DNA from: a virus
Lineage: Duplodnaviria > Heunggongvirae > Uroviricota > Caudoviricetes
Strand: one strand, 5' to 3'
Length of the DNA: 25,803 nt
Virus record (IMG/VR): IMGVR_UViG_3300045988_092979
Span: 1-25,803 of that record
The position numbers and the translations under genes are program-made. Below are positions 1 to 19,396 of this stretch, piece after piece. Numbering within the stretch: the stretch's first letter is position 1; each line of letters opens with the position of its first letter. Under the pieces are notes generated by a model, which was not told where the DNA came from, ran no database searches, and saw only the letters and a program-made list of their open reading frames with translations.

Positions 1-501
1 ACGGACTGGCGCATTGTGCCGAAAGTTCCGGTCGTTGAGCCTTTGACTTTAAAAAGCGGCATCGCCGCGCCTCGGAGTCCTGTCAATAACTGTGGAAAGC
101 TCACTGGTGGTGATACTTCGTTACCGGCTCCCACACCTTCTGAGCACGCCGCAGCAGTGCTTAATCTGGTTGATGACGGTGTTATTGAATGGAATGAACC
201 GGAGGTCGTGAGGGCGCTCAGGGGCGCATTAAAACACGACCTGCGAACGCCAAACCGTCAGCAAAGAAACGGAAGCCCGTTAAAACCACATGAAATTGCA
301 CCATCGGCCAGACTGACCCGGTCGGAAAGAATGCAAATCACCCGTATCCGCGTTGACCTTGCTCAGAACGGTATCAGGCCGCAGCGATGGGAGCTTGAGG
401 CGCTGGCGCGTGGCGCGCCCGTAAATTATGACGGGAAAAAATTCACGTATCCGGTCGCTGATGAGTGGCCGGGATTCTCAACAGTAATGGAGTGGAAATG
501 A
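1..501 (+). CDS. 3' portion of a gene that begins upstream of the window; product uncertain, possibly a replication-module protein
   Basis: Reading frame is open from nt 1 with no in-frame stop; the track ORF at 16 begins on GTG. Stop TGA 499-501 overlaps the next start (ATGA). Lies upstream of the tin/old-equivalent position in P2 order. Confidence 0.4.
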   Translation, partial: TDWRIVPKVPVVEPLTLKSGIAAPRSPVNNCGKLTGGDTSLPAPTPSEHAAAVLNLVDDGVIEWNEPEVVRALRGALKHDLRTPNRQQRNGSPLKPHEIAPSARLTRSERMQITRIRVDLAQNGIRPQRWELEALARGAPVNYDGKKFTYPVADEWPGFSTVMEWK

Positions 502-953
502 TGGCAAAAATTCACGAGGTAAAGCTGCACGCCAAATATTTTGACCTTGTGCTGGAAGGAAAGAAACGCGCAGAGTTTCGGAAAAATGACCGTAATTATG
601 AGCGCGGGGACACGTTGATTTTGCATGAATGGGTACAGGGTGTGTATACGGGGCGAAAGGTTGAAGCCCGGATAACAGATGTTACTGACCTGTCAGACTG
701 GCTGGAAGATTATGTCTTGCTAAGTATTGAGCTGCTTAATACAGGCGCATATGAGATTGTGAACTGGAAAGAACTTAGTGAGCGTGGTCTGGTATTCAGA
801 ATTAATCATGAAATTATGCATCAGCTCGGCCTTGCTGTTATGTATGAACCAGAGACGGGGATGTCTGGCGGGGCAATGGTTGCCACGGATGGAGCATGGA
901 ACTATTCAGATGAACAGATGGAGCGTGCACAGCAAAACGGGTGGCTTGGATAA
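498..953 (+). CDS. hypothetical protein, possibly ASCH/PUA-like (DUF3850-like) small protein
   Basis: ATG at 498 and 501 preceded by GGAG (489-492). N-terminal segment KLHAKYFDLVLEGKKRAEFRKNDRNYERGD resembles ASCH-type proteins by recall only. Stop TAA 951-953. Confidence 0.45.
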   Translation: MMAKIHEVKLHAKYFDLVLEGKKRAEFRKNDRNYERGDTLILHEWVQGVYTGRKVEARITDVTDLSDWLEDYVLLSIELLNTGAYEIVNWKELSERGLVFRINHEIMHQLGLAVMYEPETGMSGGAMVATDGAWNYSDEQMERAQQNGWLG

Positions 954-1165
954 TGCACAGAATACCAGGCGAGATACCGCACCATAAAACTAAAAATATC
1001 AAGCTGATGGCTATTGTTCACCGTCTACAGCAGATTATGGTCAACGAAAATCTGACGCCCGATGAGCTAGTCGGGTGTGCCGAAATAGTCCGGGATAATT
1101 ACGGGCGACTTAACTATATCGGTATCGGTCAGTCCAGAGTTGCGCCACCACCACGTAGACGATAG
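953..1165 (+). CDS. small hypothetical protein
   Basis: ATG at 953 overlaps the upstream stop (TAATG); the track start at 941 is GTG. No recognisable motif. Confidence 0.3.
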   Translation: MHRIPGEIPHHKTKNIKLMAIVHRLQQIMVNENLTPDELVGCAEIVRDNYGRLNYIGIGQSRVAPPPRRR

Positions 1166-1291
1166 AGAACGCCGCCAGTCGTGAAACTTGTTTTCAGGGC
1201 TGGCGGGGTTGAACAACGAGCGAAGCGAGGCGTTAGTTCAATCGATGATCATAAGCTTATGAGTTAAGCCTCGAGATTTTGTAGAAAGGGT

Positions 1292-1299
1292 TGTATACT
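1292..1299 (+). promoter_or_regulatory. candidate extended -10 promoter element (TGTATACT) upstream of the methyltransferase gene
   Basis: TGnTATACT at 1292-1299, about 25 nt upstream of ATG 1324; GGAG RBS at 1317-1320. No convincing -35. Confidence 0.3.
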
Positions 1300-1323
1300 G
1301 GACATCGTATGGATCTGGAGTGA

Positions 1324-2349
1324 ATGATGATTGTAAAGGTGATAGACCTTTTTTGTGGTGCTGGCGGATTAACTCATGGTTTGCAACTCGCAGGTCTTGA
1401 TGTCGTTGCTGGTATTGACCTTGAGGGGGAATGTCGATTTCCCTATGAAAAAAACAATAAATCAAAGTTTATTGAGAAAGATATCGCTAAAGTAACCAAA
1501 GAGGAATTACTGAAGCTATATGGTGATGCGTCTATAAAAGTATTGGCTGGATGTGCACCTTGCCAACCTTTTTCAAAATATACTCAAGGAAAAGATAAAG
1601 CGGAAGATAAAAAATGGCCTCTTCTTTATGAGTTCGAGCGTTTAATTCGCGAGGTATCTCCAGAAATTGTAACAATGGAGAACGTGCCTGATGTAACTAA
1701 ACATAAAGTTTATAATGACTTTTATTATTCGTTGTTAGAACTGGGATATTATGTTTGGGCATCAAAGGTTGATTGTGTCGAATATGGAATTCCACAGAAC
1801 CGTTCTCGTCATGTATTGTTAGCCTCAAAGTTGGGGGAGATTGAGTTAGTAAAACGTAATGATGTTATTTTGAAAACTGTTAGGGATGCAATAGGTGGTC
1901 TTCCACCATTAGAAGATGGTCAAACAGATCCAAATGATATATTGCATAGAGCCAGTAAATTAAACTCGATTAATAAAAAAAGAATTATACACTCTATTCC
2001 AGGTGGTACATGGAAGGACTGGCCGGAAGAACTTATTGCTGCTTGTCATATGAAGTCTAGCGGTAAAGGGTATGCTAGCGTATATGGGAGGATGTCTTGG
2101 GATAAGCCAAGCCCGACAATTACAACTCTTTGTTATGGTTTTGGGAATGGTCGTTTTGGCCACCCAGAACAGAACAGAGCTATTTCTCTTAGAGAAGCGG
2201 CTTTGTTGCAAACATTTCCTATGGATTATGTTTTTGTTGAAGAACAGGAAAAGTTTGTTATAAGAAGTATTGGAAAAATGATAGGTAATGCTGTACCAGT
2301 TGAGTTAGGAAAAGTCATTGGGCAATCAATAAAAAATCATTTGAAATAA
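1324..2349 (+). CDS. DNA (cytosine-5)-methyltransferase
   Basis: Canonical C5-MTase motifs in the translation: FCGAGG (motif I, AdoMet binding), PCQPFS (motif IV, catalytic Cys), ENVPD (motif VI), QNRSR (motif VIII), GNAVPV near the C-terminus (motif X). AT-rich relative to the phage backbone by eye. Confidence 0.9.
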   Translation: MMIVKVIDLFCGAGGLTHGLQLAGLDVVAGIDLEGECRFPYEKNNKSKFIEKDIAKVTKEELLKLYGDASIKVLAGCAPCQPFSKYTQGKDKAEDKKWPLLYEFERLIREVSPEIVTMENVPDVTKHKVYNDFYYSLLELGYYVWASKVDCVEYGIPQNRSRHVLLASKLGEIELVKRNDVILKTVRDAIGGLPPLEDGQTDPNDILHRASKLNSINKKRIIHSIPGGTWKDWPEELIAACHMKSSGKGYASVYGRMSWDKPSPTITTLCYGFGNGRFGHPEQNRAISLREAALLQTFPMDYVFVEEQEKFVIRSIGKMIGNAVPVELGKVIGQSIKNHLK

Positions 2350-2355
2350 TAAAAT

Positions 2356-2372
2356 GGCCTGCTTTGCAGGCC
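2356..2372. terminator. bidirectional rho-independent terminator hairpin between convergent genes
   Basis: Perfect 7-bp stem GGCCTGC / GCAGGCC with TTT loop; A-rich on the left (T-run for the minus-strand transcript) and T-rich on the right (TTGTGATTATTTC). Confidence 0.6.
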
Positions 2373-2378
2373 TTGTGA

Positions 2379-3059
2379 TTATTTCTCTAAGTATTCATTA
2401 TTATTTATATAATGTTCTATATTATTCGCGATTGCATCAAGATAGGCTATTACTTCTAATGAAATATTCTCTAAATCCTGATATGAAACATTTTTCCCAA
2501 TCTCAGCAAATGATACATTTCCATGAGATAAATCATTGCGATGCTGTTTAACGGTGGCTAATTTTTCACCATGTTTAGTGTGAGTGTAATCAGAATGGGT
2601 TGAAAATCCATATATTTTCGATTTTTCTTTTATTTCCTCTCTATCAATATTGCCTGAAAATATTTTCTTTTTGTTGAATGTACCATAAGAAATACCACAG
2701 GATATGCCTTTAGTAAGTCCGCCGATTAAATTATCGATGTTAACAGATTCATTTTTTAATCTTTTTAAAATTTCTGATTTTAGGTTTTTTTTAAGTTTAT
2801 CAAACTCTATGTTTCTATCATAAATAGTCTCATGTATAAGGCAGATAGCCTCTCTCATTGTTGATTCAATAAGGTTGTATAATAGTATATACACTGCACC
2901 CTTTAGAGTTTTTCGTGATTGAGATGTAATGGTGAACTTATGTTCTTTATTATCGGATGATATCAATTCCGCACCAGCATGCTCAATAAATTTTAAAAGA
3001 TCTAAATAGGCCAAGATTTCTCCTGACCTTTCGTCAAAATCCTCACGAAAACGATCCAT
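2379..3059 (-). CDS. HEPN-like predicted RNase/effector protein (R-x4-H motif); second gene of a two-gene operon
   Basis: 226 aa; C-terminal region contains KQHRNDLSHG, matching the HEPN R-x4-H signature. Start ATG 3059-3057 preceded by GAGGA; separated by one nucleotide from the stop of the upstream DUF262 gene. AT-rich. Confidence 0.6.
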   Translation of the reverse strand: MDRFREDFDERSGEILAYLDLLKFIEHAGAELISSDNKEHKFTITSQSRKTLKGAVYILLYNLIESTMREAICLIHETIYDRNIEFDKLKKNLKSEILKRLKNESVNIDNLIGGLTKGISCGISYGTFNKKKIFSGNIDREEIKEKSKIYGFSTHSDYTHTKHGEKLATVKQHRNDLSHGNVSFAEIGKNVSYQDLENISLEVIAYLDAIANNIEHYINNNEYLEK

Positions 3060-3060
3060 G

Positions 3061-4203
3061 TTAATCCTCTAATAGTTTGTCTCGCACATATTCAATTCGT
3101 TCAATTACCTTCACGCGACTATTTGCTCCGTCGGAGGTGGTTAATTGTTTGAATTCTTCTGAGCTTAGCCAATCTAAGTTTTTGGGGACAAGGTTAGGCT
3201 CTAGACGTAATGCGAGTGCAGCACCAACAGCGAGAGATTCAAATCTAACTCGAGGTGTGGATTTTGCAGTGATAGTTTTCTTAAAGCCTGCTGGGAAATG
3301 GTTTTCAACGAAAGACAGAACATTCGAAAACTCTTCTTTCATTGAGTTTTGTTCAGCTTCATCTATATCACTCTTTTCCTTCATGTAATCATTCAGAAAA
3401 TCACGCACGGAATGATCAAATTTCTTATATTTATCTAAGTAAGCAAAGAATCTCAATGTAAATTCTAACCGTTCATCTCGTTTTTCTTTAGCCTCAGATA
3501 AAGGTGCTAACTCCTTAAATTTAGATATTGTCGAGCATGGCTTAATAACCTGCGTATATAAATTTGTTGAGCCAAGTTCTGAACCTTTACGAACTTCCAT
3601 ATCTTTCAATATGTCACTACCAGAGTTAATTCGCTCAAAAAGATCCCTGCGGGTTTCTTCATTGCATTTAGAACTCAACTCTATAACACGCACAGGAATT
3701 CTCATGAAACGGCGTTGGCGTGATAATGGTAAATCTTGGAATCTGAAACCATTAAGAGAACTTAAAGATTTCAGATCTTGTAAAACTAATTCATTGTGGA
3801 TAAACGCATGTATGGTTCTAACACGCTGTGAGCCATCAACAATTTCAATCCGTCCATCTAAATCGGGATCTTCTGAAAAGACATCAGCTGTAAATATATA
3901 TGGTATAGGGAAGCCCAAAATTAAAGACTCTATTAATCTTGATTGTCTCTTTTCATTCCAAACAAAGTCCCTTTGATAATCAGGAACAAAGAGTTCGTTG
4001 GTATCATCCTCTAACCCGTTATGATATTTATTAACTAATAACTCAACAGTAAATTCTTTGGTCTCAAAGTCAACATCCTTTTGCTCTGCGCGAATTTGCT
4101 CTTCAGCCTCTTGTTTTATAACTTCTAGCTGAGCTAGGAGTTCTGCCCTTTTTTTGGCATTATCTTCATGTTCTAGTTGAGATTTTAACCCAATAATATC
4201 CAT
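3061..4203 (-). CDS. DUF262 (ParB/sulfiredoxin-like NTP-binding) domain protein, GmrSD N-terminal-domain-like, without a fused DUF1524/HNH nuclease domain
   Basis: 380 aa; FVPDYQRDFVW and IEIVDGSQRV match the two hallmark DUF262 motifs (YQRxYxW and DGQQR). Start ATG 4203-4201 preceded by AAGGGA. AT-rich, coiled-coil-like N-terminus. Confidence 0.7.
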   Translation of the reverse strand: MDIIGLKSQLEHEDNAKKRAELLAQLEVIKQEAEEQIRAEQKDVDFETKEFTVELLVNKYHNGLEDDTNELFVPDYQRDFVWNEKRQSRLIESLILGFPIPYIFTADVFSEDPDLDGRIEIVDGSQRVRTIHAFIHNELVLQDLKSLSSLNGFRFQDLPLSRQRRFMRIPVRVIELSSKCNEETRRDLFERINSGSDILKDMEVRKGSELGSTNLYTQVIKPCSTISKFKELAPLSEAKEKRDERLEFTLRFFAYLDKYKKFDHSVRDFLNDYMKEKSDIDEAEQNSMKEEFSNVLSFVENHFPAGFKKTITAKSTPRVRFESLAVGAALALRLEPNLVPKNLDWLSSEEFKQLTTSDGANSRVKVIERIEYVRDKLLED

Positions 4204-4277
4204 ATCCAGATCCCTTAATGATTGTTATAAATGAAAACAGATAGCATACCGCATAGATCAGGAAAAATGCCATCGCA

Positions 4278-4294
4278 TGCATGAATTTGCATGA
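4278..4294. promoter_or_regulatory. candidate operator: direct repeat TGCATGA x2 with 10-bp register, in the promoter region of the minus-strand operon
   Basis: TGCATGA at 4278-4284 and 4288-4294, embedded in overlapping GCATGC/ATGCAT palindromes, about 75-90 nt upstream of the DUF262 start codon. Confidence 0.3.
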
Positions 4295-4387
4295 GAGAAA
4301 GATTACCATTTGGGATTAGCTTTGCCAGTGCTGATGGGTTTTGGAATTTAATCATGTACTGCATCAAAACCGCCTCATGAAGCGGGC

Positions 4388-4406
4388 GGGCGAGGCGGGG
4401 AAAGCA
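4388..4406. other. cos cohesive-end sequence of P2-type phage (GGCGAGGCGGGGAAAGCAC)
   Basis: Exact 19-nt string that I recall as the P2/P4 cohesive end. It lies between the tin/old-equivalent cargo and gene Q, as expected for P2 genome topology. Confidence 0.6.
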
Positions 4407-4549
4407 CTGCGCGCTGGCGGTGGTGCTGATTTTATTTTTTCAGCGTCTCAGCGCGTCGTAATGGCGTTTAGATTGTGCGCCGGGGCGCTGGTGTGTCTGC
4501 GGGCTGTTTTGTGCGGTGGTGAGTGTGTGAGGGCGTGATGACGGGGTGT

Positions 4550-4571
4550 AAAAAAGCCGCCCGCAGGCGGC
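4550..4571 (-). terminator. rho-independent terminator downstream of portal gene Q
   Basis: On the minus strand: stem GCCGCC-(TGCG loop)-GGCGGC followed by TTTTTT (top-strand A-run 4550-4555), immediately 3' of the Q stop codon (4577-4579). Confidence 0.7.
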
Positions 4572-4576
4572 GATGT

Positions 4577-5611
4577 TCAGCCGTTGTCTGTGTCCAGTGA
4601 GTAGTTTTTAAAGCGGATGACCTCCTGACCGAGCCAGCCGTTTATTTCCCGAATCCTGTCCTGTAACGGGATAAGCTCATTGCGGACAAAGACCTTTGCC
4701 ACTTTCTCAATATCACCCAGCGACCCGACGTTCTCCGGCTTGCCTCCCATCAACTGAAAGGGGATGCGGTGCGCGTCCAGCAGGTCAGCGGCGCTGGCTT
4801 TTTTGATATTAAAAAAATCGTCCTTCGTTGCCACTTCACTGAGCGGGATAATTTTAATGCCGTCGGCTTTCCCCTGTGGGGCATAGAGAAACAGGTTTTT
4901 AAAGTTGTTGCGGCCTTTCGACTTAACCATGTTTTCGCGAAGCATTTCGATATCGTTGCGATCCTGCACGGCATCGGTAACGTACATGATGTATCCGGCA
5001 TGCGCGCCGTTTTCGTAATACTTGCGGCGGAACAGTGTGGCCGACTCATTCAGCCAGGCAGAGTTAAGGGCGCTGAGATATTCCGGCAGGCCGTACAGCT
5101 CCTGATTAATATCCGGCTCCAGCAGGTGAAACACGGAGCCGGGCGCGAAGGCTGTCGGCTCGTTGAAGGACGGCACCCACCAGTAAACATCCTCCTCCAC
5201 GCCACGGCGGGTATATTTTGCCGGTGAGGTTTCCAGTCTGATGACCTTACCGGTGGTGCTGTAACGCTTTTCCAGAAACGCATTACCGAACACCAGAAAA
5301 TCCAGCACAAAGCGGCTGAAATCCTGTTGCGAAAGCCACGGGTGCGGAATAAACGTTGAAGCCAGAATATTACGTTTGACGTAAATCGGTGAACTGTGAT
5401 GCACGGCAGCACGCAGGCTTTTTGCCAGACCGGTAAAGCTGACCGGTGGCTCATACCATCTGCCGTTACTGATGCACTCGATGTAATCCAGAATGTCACG
5501 GCGGTCGAGTACCGGCACCGGTTCACCAAAGGTGAATGCCTCCATTTTCGGGGCGCTGGCGGTCATTTTTTTTGCCGCTGGTCGCGGTGTTTTCCCTTTT
5601 TTCTTGCTCAT
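4577..5611 (-). CDS. Q: portal (capsid portal vertex) protein
   Basis: 344 aa, the size and position of P2 gpQ; basic N-terminus MSKKKGKTPRPAAKK. Start overlaps the stop of P by 1 nt (translational coupling). Confidence 0.9.
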   Translation of the reverse strand: MSKKKGKTPRPAAKKMTASAPKMEAFTFGEPVPVLDRRDILDYIECISNGRWYEPPVSFTGLAKSLRAAVHHSSPIYVKRNILASTFIPHPWLSQQDFSRFVLDFLVFGNAFLEKRYSTTGKVIRLETSPAKYTRRGVEEDVYWWVPSFNEPTAFAPGSVFHLLEPDINQELYGLPEYLSALNSAWLNESATLFRRKYYENGAHAGYIMYVTDAVQDRNDIEMLRENMVKSKGRNNFKNLFLYAPQGKADGIKIIPLSEVATKDDFFNIKKASAADLLDAHRIPFQLMGGKPENVGSLGDIEKVAKVFVRNELIPLQDRIREINGWLGQEVIRFKNYSLDTDNG

Positions 5612-7383
5612 CAGTAAAACTCCAGAATGGTGGATGTCAGCGGAGTGCTGATACCCGCGGTGAGTGGCTCATTTAACAGGGCGTGCATGGTCGCCCAGGC
5701 GAGGTCGGCGTGGCTGGCTTCCTCGCTGCGGCTGGCCTCATAGGTGGCGCTGCGTCCGCTGCTGGTCATGGTCTTGCGGATAGCCATAAACGAGCTGGTG
5801 ATGTCGGTGGCGCTGACGTCATATTCCAGACAGCCACGGCGGATGACGTCTTTTGCCTTGAGCACCATTGCGGTTTTCATTTCCGGCGTGTAGCGGATGT
5901 CGCGCGCGGCGGGATAGAACGAGCGCACGAGCTGGAACACGCCGACACCGAGGCCGGTGGCATCAATACCGATGTATTCGACGTTATATTTTTCGGTGAG
6001 TTTGCGGATGGATTCAGCCTGGGTGGCAAAGTCCATGCCTTTCCACTGGTGACGCTCAAGTATTCTGAATTTGCCACCGGCCACCACCGGCGGTGCCAGC
6101 ACCACGCATCCGGCGCTGTCGCCACGGTGTGACGGGTCGTAACCAATCCAGACCGGGCGGGAGCCGAACGGATTCGCGGCAAACGGCGCATAGTCTTCCC
6201 ATTCTTCCAGCGTGTCGACCATGCAGCGTTGCAGCTCCTCGAACGGGAACACCGACGCCTTGTCGTCAACAAATTCACACATGAACAGGTTTTTAAAATC
6301 GTCGGCGCTGTTTTCACGTTTGAGCTGCTCAATGTCGAACAGCGTGCAGCCGCCTTTCAGGGCGTCCTCAATGGTGACAATCTGCCGCCACTGGCCGTCC
6401 GCACAGAGAAGACCTCCGGCAAGGGCGTTATGACTGACGTCGATTTCCACGCGTTCGGCGGCGCTGGCGCGTCCCCGGTTGAACAGTTCACCCGACCAGA
6501 ACGGGTAGGCGTCGTGCGCCAGCGTGGACGGGGTGGAGAAATAGGTCGAGCGCAGGTGACTCTGTGAGGCCATACCTGATGCCACCTTACGCAGTACCTG
6601 AAAATTCGGGATCCAGAAAATCTCGTCGACGTACAGGTCGCCGTTATGGCTCTGTGCGGTGTTGGAGTTGGTGCCGAGAAAAATCAGTTTTGCGCCGTTA
6701 TTGCCCAGGACAATCGGGTCACCGGTCAGGTCAACGTCAACCAGCCGGGCAAAGGCGATGATGTATTCGCGGAACACATACGCCTGCGTTTTACTGGCCG
6801 ACAGAAAAATCTGGTTATGACCGGTTTTCAGGGCGCGCAGCAGCGCCTCGCGGGAAAAATAAAACGTCGCGCCAATCTGGCGGGATTTCAGGATATCGCG
6901 GATGCGGTGCTCAAGCCCGGCGCGATACCAGTGCAACTGATATTCGAAAGACTGCTCAAAGAAAATCTGCTCCAGCTTTTCGATGGCCTCGTCACTGAAA
7001 AAATTCTTTTTCGGTTTGCGACGCCCGCCTTTGTTGCGGTTAGCGACGTTCGGATTAAGGTCTGCCTCGTTGCCGGTCTGACTGTAGCGGTTTACCCGTG
7101 CCAGTCGTTCAATCTGGCGTCCCAGCAGGTCAATTTCCTTGAAGTCACCGCCGGTTTTCTGCGGTTTGATGATGAGCTGGGTCAGTCGCGCTTCCAGACT
7201 CATTTCGACACGGCTGATGGGGGCAACGCTGTCCCAGCCGTCGCGCTGTTTCCAGCTCTGCACCGTCGGACGTTTCATCTGCAACATGGCGGCAATCTGC
7301 GGCACGGAAAACCCCTGCCAGTACAGCAGCGCCGCCTGACGACGCGGGTCGTGTAAAAGAGTGGTGTCTGTGGTGATGGTCAT
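5611..7383 (-). CDS. P: terminase large (ATPase) subunit
   Basis: Start chosen at ATG 7383 (MTITTDTTLLHDPRRQAALLYWQGF...), with GAGGT RBS upstream; the track ORF extends 10 codons further. Size about 590 aa and position match P2 gpP. Confidence 0.9.
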   Translation of the reverse strand: MTITTDTTLLHDPRRQAALLYWQGFSVPQIAAMLQMKRPTVQSWKQRDGWDSVAPISRVEMSLEARLTQLIIKPQKTGGDFKEIDLLGRQIERLARVNRYSQTGNEADLNPNVANRNKGGRRKPKKNFFSDEAIEKLEQIFFEQSFEYQLHWYRAGLEHRIRDILKSRQIGATFYFSREALLRALKTGHNQIFLSASKTQAYVFREYIIAFARLVDVDLTGDPIVLGNNGAKLIFLGTNSNTAQSHNGDLYVDEIFWIPNFQVLRKVASGMASQSHLRSTYFSTPSTLAHDAYPFWSGELFNRGRASAAERVEIDVSHNALAGGLLCADGQWRQIVTIEDALKGGCTLFDIEQLKRENSADDFKNLFMCEFVDDKASVFPFEELQRCMVDTLEEWEDYAPFAANPFGSRPVWIGYDPSHRGDSAGCVVLAPPVVAGGKFRILERHQWKGMDFATQAESIRKLTEKYNVEYIGIDATGLGVGVFQLVRSFYPAARDIRYTPEMKTAMVLKAKDVIRRGCLEYDVSATDITSSFMAIRKTMTSSGRSATYEASRSEEASHADLAWATMHALLNEPLTAGISTPLTSTILEFY

Positions 7384-7556
7384 GAATACCTCGCCGTGAT
7401 GAATACACGGCAAGGCTACTGAGTCGCGCCCCGCGATTCGCTAAGGTGCTGTTGTGTCAGTGATAAGCCATCCGGGACTGATGGCGGAGGATGCGCATCG
7501 TCGGGAAACTGATGCCGACATGTGACTCCTCTAATCACTATTCAGGACTCCTGACA
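7384..7556. promoter_or_regulatory. divergent late promoter region between P (minus) and O (plus)
   Basis: 173-bp intergenic gap between divergently transcribed operons, the position of the P2 PP/PO late promoters. Specific promoter elements not verified. Confidence 0.5.
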
Positions 7557-9546: not shown

Positions 9547-10290
9547 ATGACGAGTCCCGCACAGCGCCACATGATGCGGGTCTCGGCAGCGATGACCGCG
9601 CAGCGGGAAGCCGCCCCGCTGCGACATGCAACTGTCTATGAGCAGATGCTGGTCAAGCTGGCCGCAGACCAGCGCACACTGAAAGCGATTTATTCAAAAG
9701 AGCTTAAGGCCGCGAAAAAACGCGAACTGCTGCCGTTCTGGTTGCCGTGGGTGAACGGCGTGCTGGAGCAGGGCAAAGGTGCACAGGATGACATTCTGAT
9801 GACGGTCATGCTGTGGCGTCTGGATACCGGCGATATTGCCGGTGCGCTGGAGATTGCCCGTTATGCCCTGAAGTACGGTCTGACCATGCCGGGTAAACAC
9901 CGCCGCACCCCGCCGTACATGTTCACCGAGGAGGTGGCGCTCGCGGCCATGCGTGCTCACGCTGCCGGTGAGTCTGTGGATACCCGCCTGCTGACGGAGA
10001 CCCTTGAACTGACCGCCACGGCTGACATGCCTGATGAAGTGCGCGCAAAGCTGCACAAAATCACAGGTCTGTTTCTGCGTGATGGTGGTGATGCCGCCGG
10101 TGCGCTGGCTCACCTGCAACGTGCGACACAGCTCGACTGTCAGGCAGGTGTCAAAAAAGAGATTGAACGACTGGAGCGGGAGCTGAAACCGAAGCCGGAG
10201 CCGCAGCCCAAAGCGGCCACCCGTACCCCGCGTAAGAGCCGGAGCGTGACACCGGCAAAACGTGGACGCCCGAAAAAGAAAGCCAGTTAA
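9547..10290 (+). CDS. M: terminase small (endonuclease) subunit
   Basis: 247 aa as for P2 gpM; basic lysine/arginine-rich C-terminal tail. Confidence 0.85.
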   Translation: MTSPAQRHMMRVSAAMTAQREAAPLRHATVYEQMLVKLAADQRTLKAIYSKELKAAKKRELLPFWLPWVNGVLEQGKGAQDDILMTVMLWRLDTGDIAGALEIARYALKYGLTMPGKHRRTPPYMFTEEVALAAMRAHAAGESVDTRLLTETLELTATADMPDEVRAKLHKITGLFLRDGGDAAGALAHLQRATQLDCQAGVKKEIERLERELKPKPEPQPKAATRTPRKSRSVTPAKRGRPKKKAS

Positions 10291-13312: not shown

Positions 13313-13757
13313 GTTTAAGCGTTTTGAAGACCGGCTGACCGGACTTATTGAATCGCTGTCACCGTCAGGGCGTCGGCGACTGAGCGCCGAACTGGCGAAA
13401 CGTCTGCGGCAGAGTCAGCAGCGCCGGGTGATGGCACAGAAAGCCCCGGACGGCACACCCTACGCACCACGCCAGCAGCAGAGCGCCAGAAAAAAGACCG
13501 GTCGCGTTAAGCGAAAAATGTTTGCGAAACTTATCACCAGTCGTTTTTTGCATATCCGCGCCAGCCCTGAACAGGCATCAATGGAGTTTTACGGCGGGAA
13601 GTCACCGAAAATAGCCAGTGTGCATCAGTTCGGTCTGTCGGAAGAAACCCGGAAAGACGGTAAGAAAATTGATTATCCGGCGCGTCCTCTGCTCGGCTTT
13701 ACCGGTGAGGATGTGCAGATGATTGAAGAGATTATCCTGGCTCACCTCGACCGTTAG
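13305..13757 (+). CDS. S: tail completion protein S
   Basis: 150 aa, position and size as P2 gpS; start overlaps the end of R. Confidence 0.8.
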   Translation: MNEFKRFEDRLTGLIESLSPSGRRRLSAELAKRLRQSQQRRVMAQKAPDGTPYAPRQQQSARKKTGRVKRKMFAKLITSRFLHIRASPEQASMEFYGGKSPKIASVHQFGLSEETRKDGKKIDYPARPLLGFTGEDVQMIEEIILAHLDR

Positions 13758-13823
13758 TTGTGCCATTCCCGACACCTCATCGTTACATTGCCGCCGGTAT
13801 GACCCGGCGGCATCCTTCCCGTT
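13758..13823 (+). promoter_or_regulatory. late promoter region upstream of the V-W-J-I-H-G operon, containing a GC hairpin
   Basis: 66-bp gap at the position of the P2 PV late promoter; 8-bp perfect inverted repeat GCCGCCGG / CCGGCGGC at 13790-13811. Confidence 0.45.
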
Positions 13824-14459
13824 ATGAACACTCTCGCAAATATCCAGGAACTCGCGCGCGCACTGCGCAACATGATCCGCACCGGCCTTGTCGTCGAAAC
13901 CAACCTTAAAGCCGGTCGCTGCCGTGTGCAGACCGGCGGCATGTGCACCGACTGGCTTCAGTGGCTGACCTGTCGTGCCGGGCGTTCGCGCACATGGTGG
14001 GCACCTTCCGTGGGGGAGCAGGTGCTGATTCTGGCCGTGGGCGGTGAACTTGACACGGCGTTTGTTCTGCCGGGGATTTATTCCGGCGATAACCCCGCGC
14101 CGTCTGCGTCGGCGGATGCCCTGCATATCCGTTTCCCTGACGGGGCGGTGATTGAGTATGAACCCGAAACCAGTGCACTCACGGTAAGCGGAATTAAAAC
14201 GGCCAGCGTGACGGCTTCTGATTCTGTTACCGCCACGGTGCCGGTGGTCATGGTGAAAGCATCAACCCGCGTCACCCTGGACACACCGGAGGTGGTCTGC
14301 ACCAACAGGCTGATTACCGGCACGCTGGAAGTACAGAAGGGCGGGACGATGCGCGGCAACATTGAACACACCGGCGGTGAACTCTCATCAAACGGTAAGG
14401 TACTGCATACCCATAAACACCCCGGCGACAGCGGCGGCACAACCGGGAGCCCTCTATGA
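13824..14459 (+). CDS. V: baseplate spike/assembly protein V
   Basis: 211 aa as P2 gpV. Confidence 0.85.
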   Translation: MNTLANIQELARALRNMIRTGLVVETNLKAGRCRVQTGGMCTDWLQWLTCRAGRSRTWWAPSVGEQVLILAVGGELDTAFVLPGIYSGDNPAPSASADALHIRFPDGAVIEYEPETSALTVSGIKTASVTASDSVTATVPVVMVKASTRVTLDTPEVVCTNRLITGTLEVQKGGTMRGNIEHTGGELSSNGKVLHTHKHPGDSGGTTGSPL

Positions 14460-15716: not shown

Positions 15717-16320
15717 TTCGCGACTGCTGCCGACCGGCTCATCACCGCTTGAAGTCGCCGCCGCAAGAGCCTGTGCGGAAATTGAAAAAACGCCGGTCAG
15801 TATTCGTGAGCTGTGGAACCCGGATACCTGTCCGGCAAATCTGCTGCCGTGGCTGGCGTGGTCATTTTCGGTTGACCGCTGGGATGATAAGTGGCCGGAA
15901 GCGACAAAACGCGCTGTTATCCGCGATGCGTATTTCATTCACTGCCATAAGGGCACTATTGGTGCGATTCGCCGTGTGGTGGAGCCGCTCGGCTATCTGA
16001 TTGAGGTGAGGGAGTGGTGGCAGCTCAACGAGGAGCCGGGGACGTTCCGCATCGTTGTTGGCGTGCTTGAGCAGGGTATTACCGAGGAAATGTATCAGGA
16101 GCTGGAGCGTCTCGTTGCTGATGCAAAACCTGCAAGCCGCCATCTGACGGGACTGGCTATCAGTTTAAGTACAACCGGCAACATTTTTGCCGGTGCAGGA
16201 TGCTATCACGGCGACGCCCTGACGGTTTATCCCTACACCCCGGAGGCCATTATTGTCGGAGGGGATTATTTCCCGGCCTCGGCCATTCATTTAATTGATA
16301 ACCTGAGAGTAAACGCATGA
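15709..16320 (+). CDS. I: baseplate/tail protein I
   Basis: Follows J with an 8-nt overlap. 203 aa from this ATG (P2 gpI is smaller by recall, so the true start may be downstream). Confidence 0.75.
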   Translation: MSDSRLLPTGSSPLEVAAARACAEIEKTPVSIRELWNPDTCPANLLPWLAWSFSVDRWDDKWPEATKRAVIRDAYFIHCHKGTIGAIRRVVEPLGYLIEVREWWQLNEEPGTFRIVVGVLEQGITEEMYQELERLVADAKPASRHLTGLAISLSTTGNIFAGAGCYHGDALTVYPYTPEAIIVGGDYFPASAIHLIDNLRVNA

Positions 16321-17834
16321 CAGTGAAATACTACGCCATTCTGACTAATCAGGGCGCAGCACGGCTGGCTAACGCGACGATGCTCGGCAGTAAGCTGAAT
16401 CTGACGCAAATGGCCGTTGGTGATGCGAATGGTGTCTTGCCGACACCAGACCCGGCACAGACAAAACTGATTAACCAGAAACGCATCGCGCCGCTGAATC
16501 TTCTGAGTGTTGACCCGAACAACCAGAGCCAGATTATTGCGGAGCAAATCATCCCTGAGAACGAGGGCGGATTCTGGATCCGTGAGATTGGGCTTTATGA
16601 TGATGAAGGCGTACTCATTGCGGTGGCGAACTGCCCGGAAACGTACAAACCGCAGTTGCAGGAAGGCAGCGGTCGTACCCAGACTATCCGCATGATTCTG
16701 GTTGTCACGAATACCGAAGCTATCACGCTGAAAATCGACCCGTCGGTGGTACTGGCGACCCGTAAATACGTGGATGATGAAGTCCTGGAATTAAGGCTGT
16801 ATGTGGATGACCAGATGAGAAACCACATTGCCGCACAGGATCCTCATACCCAGTATGCACAGAAACATAATCCGACATTTACCGGAGAACCAAAAGCGCC
16901 GACGCCTGCCGCAGGAAATAACACCACGCGGATTGCGACCACTGAGTTTGTTCAGGCCGCTATTACCGCTCTGATTAACGGTGCGCCAGCCACGCTGGAC
17001 ACACTGAAAGAAATTGCCGCAGCCATTAACAATGACCCGAAATTCAGTACCACCATTAACAATGCGCTGTCAGGTAAGCAGCCACTGGATGAGACGCTGA
17101 CTCATTTGAGTGGGAAGGATGTTGCCGGTCTTCTTGCATACCTTGGTATTAAAGACGCATCAACAACACAGGTGGGTTTAGTCCGGTTAACCTCATCGCG
17201 GGTATCGGGTGCAGAGGATATTGCAGCCACAGCTAATGCTGTCGCGCAAAACTATACGGACATAAAATCTTTGCAAAACAAAACTCAGGATTCAACTACG
17301 ACACAGAAAGGAATTGTTCAACTTACATCATCAAGGGTATCCGAATCTGAAACGCTTGCTGCAACAGCAAAAGCGGCAGCGATGAATTATGCGGATATTG
17401 TAGCTCTGCAAGGCAAGACTAATGATGCAACCACTACAAACAAGGGAATTATCCGCGTATCTGATTCCAGAACATCAACAGAATCTGGTGTTGCTGCATC
17501 ATCACTTGCTGCATCACAAAACTATTCAGATATGAAAGGGTTGTTTGGTCAATGCGGAATGAAATCTAGAAATCTCGGTGTCGTATACACCAACAGCCAG
17601 TCTTTCGCCATATTTGTAAGCGTCAATGCGGTGCTGTCTGACGGTAGTTCATTTCTGAGCGCCAACGTTAATGTGGATGGTAATTCGGCTAATTTTCGCG
17701 GCTCTCAGACAACAAATCTTGCAGGGCAAAGAGCAACTATCGCATTCATGGTTCCTGCCGGTGCGACCTATATTGTGCAGCAGTTTTCAGGAACAGTGTC
17801 AGATGTTACCTGGGTAGAGGTGGATAAAAAATGA
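16317..17834 (+). CDS. H: tail fibre protein H; constant part to 17144, currently expressed variable C-terminal part 17145-17834
   Basis: 505 aa; N-terminal two-thirds in the canonical H position; the distal part contains three tandem ~45-aa repeats and is AT-rich. A hix-like crossover site lies in frame at 17131-17156. Confidence 0.85.
   Translation: MTVKYYAILTNQGAARLANATMLGSKLNLTQMAVGDANGVLPTPDPAQTKLINQKRIAPLNLLSVDPNNQSQIIAEQIIPENEGGFWIREIGLYDDEGVLIAVANCPETYKPQLQEGSGRTQTIRMILVVTNTEAITLKIDPSVVLATRKYVDDEVLELRLYVDDQMRNHIAAQDPHTQYAQKHNPTFTGEPKAPTPAAGNNTTRIATTEFVQAAITALINGAPATLDTLKEIAAAINNDPKFSTTINNALSGKQPLDETLTHLSGKDVAGLLAYLGIKDASTTQVGLVRLTSSRVSGAEDIAATANAVAQNYTDIKSLQNKTQDSTTTQKGIVQLTSSRVSESETLAATAKAAAMNYADIVALQGKTNDATTTNKGIIRVSDSRTSTESGVAASSLAASQNYSDMKGLFGQCGMKSRNLGVVYTNSQSFAIFVSVNAVLSDGSSFLSANVNVDGNSANFRGSQTTNLAGQRATIAFMVPAGATYIVQQFSGTVSDVTWVEVDKK
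17131..17156. other. hix/gix-like 26-bp inversion crossover site (left), inside H
   Basis: TTCTTGCATACC-TT-GGTATTAAAGAC: 12-bp half-sites around a 2-bp core; left half matches the Salmonella hixL half-site TTCTTGAAAACC at 10/12 (from memory). Core TT is complementary to core AA of the right site. Confidence 0.6.
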
Positions 17835-18199
17835 TAACAATGATGAAGTATTACAAAGATGAAAATAACGTCGTATATGCCTACGATGCGTATGGCACAC
17901 AGGATGCTTTTATCAAAGAAGGGCTTGTGCCAATCACCAGAAGTGAGGCTATGGCAATTATTAATCCCCCACCGACTCATGAACAACTCATCCAGGCTGC
18001 TGAAAATGAGCGACAGCGATTACTGTCCGCCGCTGATGCAATTATGCTCGACTGGCGCACAGAGCTGATGCTGGGTGAAATCAGCGATGCCAACAGAGCT
18101 AAACTTTCGGCGTGGCTTTTATATAAGAATCAGGTTAAGGCTGTTGATGTAACAACCGACCCTGAGCATGTTAACTGGCCTGTCATCCCGGAACTTTAG
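17831..18199 (+). CDS. G: tail fibre assembly chaperone (Tfa)
   Basis: 122 aa immediately after H with ATGA overlap; ends in a WPxxP-type motif (NWPVIPEL) typical of Tfa proteins. AT-rich. Confidence 0.7.
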   Translation: MITMMKYYKDENNVVYAYDAYGTQDAFIKEGLVPITRSEAMAIINPPPTHEQLIQAAENERQRLLSAADAIMLDWRTELMLGEISDANRAKLSAWLLYKNQVKAVDVTTDPEHVNWPVIPEL

Positions 18200-18301: not shown

Positions 18302-18733
18302 TCATGCCGCCCTTACGATATAATTAAACGCAATGTTACGAGGACGAATGGTTACATAATTAACCCCATCACCTCGTGAAGGCCCTGCAAATGAAAAACG
18401 GGAAAATCCTGGTTGGTTAGAAACAATTTGGTCATAGTTATTGATTGAATGACCAGACCCAATGTCGAAATTACCTCCGTAATGAGAAAAACTTGTACCA
18501 TCCTGCCCTGAAAGCAGGGTACGTCCCGCATCAATCCCGCGCCCATCATCCCAGCCACGGATAAATTCACCGCGTAAATCCGGTAATTTATTGGTGGGGT
18601 AGGCTTTTGCCAGTTTGGGATACATTTCAGAAGAAAATGCTGCACCATTGCATTTTAGCCAGCCCGTTGGTGGTGTTTCTAAGGGCCACGGAACGGGCAC
18701 ACCAACAGGCAGTGCAGAGCCTTCCCCCAAACC
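18302..18733 (-). CDS. silent, start-less alternative tail-fibre C-terminal cassette in inverted orientation
   Basis: Translation (…GWLKCNGAAFSSEMYPKLAKAYPTNKLPDLRGEFIRGWDDGRGID…) is a classic P2 H / Mu S-type fibre C-terminus. Its 5' end coincides with the right crossover site, so the track ATG at 18775 is not a real start. Confidence 0.7.
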   Translation of the reverse strand, partial: GLGEGSALPVGVPVPWPLETPPTGWLKCNGAAFSSEMYPKLAKAYPTNKLPDLRGEFIRGWDDGRGIDAGRTLLSGQDGTSFSHYGGNFDIGSGHSINNYDQIVSNQPGFSRFSFAGPSRGDGVNYVTIRPRNIAFNYIVRAA

Positions 18734-18747
18734 AACGTTTATGAAAA
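18722..18747. other. hix/gix-like 26-bp inversion crossover site (right)
   Basis: TTCCCCCAAACC-AA-CGTTTATGAAAA: 19/26 identity to hixL TTCTTGAAAACCAAGGTTTTTGATAA (from memory), conserved AAACC..GTTT inner positions, 56 bp upstream of the invertase start. Confidence 0.6.
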
Positions 18748-18802
18748 TGCAGAGACAACGGGTAACTGGCATCATCTCCGGTTTTTATTCAGGGGGATGC
18801 TC

Positions 18803-19396
18803 ATGCTTATTGGCTATGTACGCGTGTCAACAAATGACCAGAACACGGAATTGCAGCGTAACGCGCTGGAGTGCGCAGGATGTGAGCTGATTTTTGAGGA
18901 TAAAATCAGCGGCACTAAGTCCGACCGACCGGGACTGAAAAAACTGCTCAGGACATTATCGGAGGGGGATACACTGGTGGTCTGGAAGCTGGACAGGCTG
19001 GGGCGTAGTATGCGGCATCTGGTCATTCTGGTTGAGGAGCTGCGCGAACGCGGCGTTAATTTTCGCAGCCTGACGGATGCTATTGATACCAGCACGCCGA
19101 TGGGGCGTTTTTTCTTTCATGTGATGGGTGCCCTGGCTGAAATGGAACGAGAACTCATTGTCGAGCGGACACGCGCCGGACTGGAAGCGACCAGAGCTAA
19201 AGGTCGTATTGGTGGCAGACGTCCGAAGCTCACCGCGAGTGAGTGGGAACAGGCAGGACGGTTGCTGGCTGCGGGTGAATCACGTCAACGCGTGGCGCTG
19301 ATTTTTGATATTGGCCTGTCCACGCTCTATAAAAAATTCCCCTCATCAGCGACAAAGAATAAATTGTGTCATCCCTTAGCCAACCGGGACAAATAG
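18803..19396 (+). CDS. site-specific DNA invertase, serine recombinase of the Hin/Gin/Cin/Pin family
   Basis: N-terminus MLIGYVRVSTNDQ with the catalytic serine, and near colinear similarity to Gin as I recall it (…LVVWKLDRLGRSM…GRFFFHVMGALAEMERELI…GRIGGRRPKL…). GGGGG RBS upstream; the track ORF starts two codons earlier. Confidence 0.9.
   Translation: MLIGYVRVSTNDQNTELQRNALECAGCELIFEDKISGTKSDRPGLKKLLRTLSEGDTLVVWKLDRLGRSMRHLVILVEELRERGVNFRSLTDAIDTSTPMGRFFFHVMGALAEMERELIVERTRAGLEATRAKGRIGGRRPKLTASEWEQAGRLLAAGESRQRVALIFDIGLSTLYKKFPSSATKNKLCHPLANRDK

Follow-up and report, generated by a model that had tools for sequence, protein, structure and literature searches.

The question raised by this locus is whether a short GC-rich string to the left of the portal gene is the site at which the ends of the virion genome would be made, and where those ends would lie in the window, that is, the whole 25,803-nucleotide stretch of caudoviricete DNA analysed here. 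The search of the window detected a single exact copy of the 19-nt sequence GGCGAGGCGGGGAAAGCAC at 4389-4407 on the plus strand, and no other copy was found on either strand of the window when up to three mismatches were allowed. The same 19 nt occupy both termini of the P2 record AF063097 (cosL at 1-19 and cosR at 33575-33593), giving 19/19 identity with the window, and bases 1-19 of the P4 record NC_001609 are also identical to it. In P2-related phages, according to PMC3931495, which refers to Padmanabhan, Wu and Calendar (1974), this GC-rich sequence forms the 5'-extruding cohesive end. The original prediction had recognised the string as the P2/P4 cohesive end, and the identities bear out that assignment, although the coordinates given with it (4388-4406) were one base too far left. 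Alignment to the published P2 cos region, which had been proposed along with the prediction, was also in agreement, as all 19 bases of the cohesive end and 52 of the 55 bases of the surrounding core were the same as in P2. A chance occurrence of a GC-rich 19-mer can be dismissed: even at a tolerance of three mismatches, none of 100 dinucleotide-preserving shuffles contained a match, and conservation extended to the neighbouring genes and to about 140 bp of the cos architecture flanking the 19-mer. The stretch at 4389-4407, equivalent to cosN, is very probably the cohesive-end site of a P2-like temperate phage (Peduovirus), present as a prophage or as a circularly permuted phage assembly, with ends made by terminase.

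According to the record of phage 186, cutting takes place at the 5' end of the 19-mer on the top strand and at its 3' end on the bottom strand. Because this cut geometry was applied to the window, the nicks are predicted between 4388 and 4389 on the top strand and between 4407 and 4408 on the bottom strand, generating 5' overhangs as described in PMC3931495. Several deposited phage genomes have their boundaries at the same bases. HQ103, vB_YpM_476A, S164 and fiAA91-ss start exactly at the base matching window 4389, which is labelled cosL in the fiAA91-ss record, and L-413C and P2 end exactly at the base matching window 4407. We infer cleavage at this copy from its identity to P2. Identity of the 186 cohesive end to that of P2 was checked and rejected, as the related 186 sequence GGCGTGGCGGGGAAAGCAT differs at 2 of the 19 positions. 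A 65-aa ORF at 4341-4538 runs across the site, and its equivalent is annotated as 'hypothetical protein' in several phage genomes (9W, PhiR44_1). This ORF is probably a spurious call, as the virion ends would interrupt it and no such ORF is annotated in P2.

The arrangement of genes around the site was examined by tblastn with P2 proteins. The C-terminus of gpA was located at the left edge (window 1-495), followed by an orf91-like gene, the cargo, cos, tQ, Q and P, an order that agreed with the predicted placement of the site between a cargo island and Q in a P2 topology. The right flank through tQ into Q aligned closely with P2 bases 1-400, and the few differences were clustered at +70 to +110 from the top-strand nick. 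The intrinsic terminator tQ of the P-Q operon (4546-4571, minus strand), consisting of GCCGCCTGCGGGCGGC and then TTTTTT, was homologous to P2 tQ at 160-181. The end of the portal gene Q was 170 nt from the right edge of the 19-mer, and the homology to Q started 194 nt right of the nick, corresponding to the median of 86 P2-like contigs (range 182-197). The gene Q (4577-5611, minus strand; Pfam Phage_portal) encodes a protein with 98.8% identity to P2 gpQ over 343 of 344 aa. The gene P for the terminase large subunit, comprising ATPase and nuclease (5611-7383, minus strand; Pfam Terminase_6N, Terminase_6C and Terminase_5), showed 99.8% identity over all 590 aa of P2 gpP, and the terminase subunit gene M (9547-10290, plus strand) showed 98.8% identity over all 247 aa of P2 gpM. 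The counterpart of M in a related E. coli prophage is annotated as 'terminase endonuclease subunit'.

On the left edge, the gpA nick site at the replication origin is expected at around window 74 by collinearity with P2 29892 in gene A. The Orf91 homologue in the region 465-1165 was an extended form of 162 aa with DUF3850/ASCH and DUF7415, of which only the first 75 residues matched P2 Orf91, and it was followed by a 74-aa ORF without family match.

The cohesive end could also belong to a P4-like satellite sharing the cos of its helper, since P4 is identical in the 19-mer and shares the 55-bp core, and, when 121 contexts of the 19-mer were sampled, 20 were P4-like and 86 were P2-like. The P2 and P4 cos are both cut by the P2 terminase (PMC9122126). 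P4 (NC_001609) shares the 19-mer, the core and a distal element at -111 with the window, whereas its site lies between psu (left) and gop/beta (right), and P4 carries no packaging genes and is unrelated to the window beyond +26. In the P4-like contigs, psu ends 167-216 nt left of the nick. Neither psu nor delta, sid, alpha or a P4-type int was detected in the window by tblastn. The site was instead flanked by gpA, the orf91-like gene and the cargo on the left and by Q and P on the right, with a right flank of the P2 type. The gene content around the site refuted a satellite origin, to which we attach hardly any probability.

The alignment of the window with the circularised junctions of P2, P4 and 186 revealed a conserved block of exactly 55 bp, from -29 to +26 relative to the top-strand nick (4360-4414, plus strand), common to P2, P4 and the window. 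The comparison was extended to 118 natural copies from IMG/VR, for which the exact 19-mer was the sole selection criterion. The columns -29 to +26 were nearly invariant in these copies, and conservation collapsed beyond them. PMC3931495, PMC9594776 and PMC5694545 all refer to Ziermann and Calendar (1990) for a core of 55 bp, which PMC3931495 describes as the cos region needed for packaging. The core of the window differed from that of P2 in T to C at -24, C to T at -14 and G to A at -12, all of which are located at naturally variable columns, and the A at -12 was the majority base among the natural copies. When compared to the commonest natural 55-mer, two differences were found, namely C at -24 and T at -14. 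The isolated phages 9W, P2SIDE7 and PhiR44_1 showed only these two base differences from the window over the range from -29 to +60.

Both are minority bases, as C at -24 was present in 8 and T at -14 in 3 of the 118 natural copies. Such rare substitutions in the core would be in line with a relic, in which the site is a true P2-type cos by descent and the prophage is defective or the site weakened, with no virion ends made here. However, all four bases were seen at -24 and at -14 among the natural copies, and viable phages vary in the zone from -24 to -10, where three positions distinguish P2 from P4 and vB_YpM_50 carries a difference at -19. The rarity of the variant was also seen at larger scale and counts towards a relic. 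A related cos region was present in 2,152 of 5,426 complete E. coli genomes (approximately 40%), and a cos region identical over 176 bp was found in only one of the 5,426, that of E. coli GN04592. The prophage of this strain also carries the identical 55-mer and was the closest complete relative, with 98.8% identity over 7.5 kb. It is located next to cpxP and is arranged in the order of int, cox, B, A, methylase-HEPN-DUF262, cos, Q through D, and ogr. The frameshifted helix-turn-helix gene at its repressor position, together with the location of the early/immunity region (int, C, cox and B) outside the window, also speaks for a relic. Against it, Q, P, O, N, M, L, X, Y, K, lysA, lysB, R, S, V, W, J, I, FI, FII, E, T, U and D were all detected at full length in the window by tblastn, and the late genes from Q to D, except for H and G, which are replaced, retained 82-100% identity to P2 with no frameshifts. 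We therefore regard a relic as improbable, and a cos belonging to a P2-like phage with an intact set of these late genes as the preferred reading.

P2 H and G were replaced by a different pair of tail-fibre and assembly genes. The product of gene H (16317-18199) showed 42% identity to P2 gpH over the first 255 residues and was unrelated beyond them, and the assembly gene downstream of H encodes a short Caudo_TAP protein without match to P2 gpG. Because the tail-fibre gene H and the assembly gene diverge, the host range probably differs from that of P2. The Z/fun locus of P2 between G and FI was also replaced, at 18302-19396. In this region, a gene for a Hin/Gin-type serine recombinase (18797-19396, plus strand; Resolvase and HTH_7) adjoins a reverse tail-fibre fragment (18302-18775, minus strand; Collar domain), an arrangement that suggests an invertible host-range segment. 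No inverted repeats supporting an invertible tail-fibre segment were found beside the recombinase gene. The tblastn search detected no counterpart of P2 old, tin, fun(Z) or orf30 in the window, and S and V were 66 nt apart (13757-13824), with P2 orf30 missing between them.

The left half of the core (4385-4370, minus strand) was scored as terminator-like, with a hairpin followed by TTTT. The hairpin or terminator at 4370-4385 was rejected, as the pairing of the stem was not kept in the natural copies. The base at -16 was A in 41 of the 118 copies, its partner at -7 was an invariant G, and no compensatory changes were present. Since the C-to-A changes at -16 were uncompensated at -7, we attribute the conservation of the core to a protein that recognises duplex DNA rather than to a structure. 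Two shorter elements were recognised next to the core. The columns -36 to -30 form a proximal extension (4353-4359, plus strand), which is ATGCAAC in most copies and CATGTAC, one base shorter, in the window, and P2 itself is without this element. The T-rich tract TTTTATTTTTT at +42 to +52 (4430-4440, plus strand) was moderately conserved in both P2-like and P4-like copies, as judged by column counts and the information profile.

Farther to the left, an element resembling TGCATGnnnTTGCAT was found approximately 100 bp from the nick in P2, P4 and the window, amid otherwise unrelated sequence. The element in the window, TGCATGAATTTGCAT (4278-4292, plus strand), starts 111 bp left of the nick and is a perfect match to the consensus TGCATnnnTTTGCAT. 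Its counterpart in P2 is located at 33464-33478, and the element is also present in the right ends of P4 and 186. It falls outside the 55-bp core cited in the literature. Matches to TGCATnnnTTTGCAT with at most two mismatches were detected in 68 of 71 distinct P2-like flanks, 18 of 18 P4-like flanks and 14 of 14 unclassified flanks, with the start almost always at -111 and occasionally at -110, -112 or -120, while equal-width control windows elsewhere in the same flanks reached this threshold in 2 of 412 cases. An independent sample picked by the 186-type 19-mer gave a similar result, with the element in 95 of 98 distinct flanks versus 0 of 392 controls. The identity between P2-like and P4-like copies was at random level on either side of the element (0.28 at -160 to -125 and 0.29 at -95 to -65) versus 0.51 across it. 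Phage 186 itself has TGCA at -124, -120, -111, -101, -35 and -29.

These comparisons raise the tentative proposal, to which we give a rather low probability, that the cos of P2, P4 and 186 is bipartite, and that the TGCATnnnTTTGCAT element at -111 may, along with the TGCA repeats near -123 and -36, serve as an accessory, cosB-like binding site for terminase, probably bound by gpM. Accessory terminase binding is the most economical reading, because packaging by the P2-type terminase is the only function that these elements share. A shared role as a promoter element was considered and is unlikely, as the motif in P4-like elements is downstream of psu and is without a leftward gene. In PMC9594776, longer cos flanks led to unexplained gains in transduction of more than 1000-fold, and a swap to a longer signal to gains of more than four orders of magnitude, the constructs being undissected; this flank effect fits an accessory role of the -111 element. 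No description of the TGCATnnnTTTGCAT element was found in the literature covered, and the element may already have been described, in particular by Ziermann and Calendar (1990). On a minimal cos and on the direction of P2 packaging, the same literature gave citations only.

The site can be compared with known systems. The cos of P2 (AF063097/NC_001895) shares with the window the 19-mer, most of the core, the element at -111, the position of tQ and Q, and near-identical gpP, gpM and gpQ. In contrast, the sequence from approximately -95 to -37 is unrelated, and the cargo on the left is tin and old in P2 but methylase, HEPN and DUF262 genes here. The cos of 186 (NC_001317; Eganvirus) has the same architecture, with a 19-nt 5' overhang, a conserved core, TGCA motifs and a portal gene to the right, whereas it differs in the cohesive end as noted above and at several positions of the core. 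The lambda cos, composed of cosQ, cosN and cosB, also combines a nicking site with 5' cohesive ends, accessory flanks recognised by terminase and unit-length packaging, as in the P2-type system, although its overhang is 12 nt and its sequences and terminase are unrelated to those of the P2 type. Unlike lambda, the P2-type sites have their long conserved flank towards the future right end of the virion DNA.

These comparisons allow a course of events to be proposed for lytic growth. The phage's own terminase, gpM and gpP, encoded 1.2-5.9 kb to the right, would recognise the cos region on replicated phage DNA and introduce the two nicks 19 bp apart, at 4388/4389 on the top strand and 4407/4408 on the bottom strand. 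P2 is reported to mature circular monomers rather than concatemers. The recognition region is larger than the 19-mer, comprising the 55-bp core (4360-4414) and probably also the distal TGCATnnnTTTGCAT element (4278-4292), and we infer from the conservation of the latter that it participates in packaging. Unit-length linear DNA would then be packaged via the gpQ portal. The left virion end, beside Q, would begin with the 5' overhang GGCGAGGCGGGGAAAGCAC, and the right end, beside the cargo, would bear the complementary 5' overhang. After injection, the overhangs would anneal, and ligation would rebuild the sequence seen in the window. If the phage is packaged, the ends of the virion genome should be located at 4389 (left, Q side) and 4407 (right, cargo side), the right end being 185 bp beyond the start of the DUF262 gene. 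The original prediction had also stated that the window spans the circularisation junction, which holds, as the cos is internal to the window and the window therefore spans the junction formed by the annealed ends.

The cargo island at 1324-4203 occupies the place of tin and old in P2 and is the last coding DNA in the P2 map convention, in accordance with the predicted location of the cargo at the extreme right end of the packaged genome. It consists of a gene for a C5 DNA methyltransferase (1324-2349, plus strand; Pfam DNA_methylase), which is divergently oriented to an operon for a DUF262/GmrSD_N protein (3061-4203, minus strand; PADLOC NsnA 3e-55 and PD-T4-2_A 1e-34) and a MAE_28990-type HEPN protein (2379-3059, minus strand; Pfam HEPN_MAE_28990). 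The GC content of the island was 0.28-0.42 versus 0.50-0.58 in the backbone. This set of genes looks like a module for modification-linked restriction or abortive infection, and, going by annotation, 'defence cargo' would be a reasonable label. A leftward promoter was expected left of the nick, because transcription of old and tin begins approximately 150 nt to the left of it in P2, and the consensus sigma-70 scan of 4204-4388 gave no convincing leftward promoter for the cargo.

Rousset et al. (2022; PMC9122126) reported 1,650 gene arrangements at the cos-proximal locus between gpA and gpQ, which they describe as a hotspot for defence, and Table S5A of that study already lists the same cargo arrangement for the P2 hotspot. 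The locus in the window, with variable non-core genes between gpA/orf91 and cos, showed no difference of substance from that hotspot. This cargo was not found among the experimentally validated systems named in the passages of PMC9122126 that were covered. The cargo was present in nine complete E. coli genomes, counted as places covering at least 80% of window 1-7500. Some P2-like IMG/VR contigs had Q at 1-3 kb right of cos, not at about 190 nt, indicating that the left virion end, too, can take up extra DNA between cos and Q.

The reading of 4389-4407 as a P2-type cos is right but ordinary, and the feature is already known, since around 40% of the complete E. coli genomes carry the same site. 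The resulting virion map helps annotation and the design of cosmids or deletions. If the reading of the -111 element is true, the real limit of the defence hotspot on the right would lie at this element, and the poor performance of P2/P4 cosmids made with short cos fragments would be explained. The element is of practical interest for builders of P2/P4 transducing particles.
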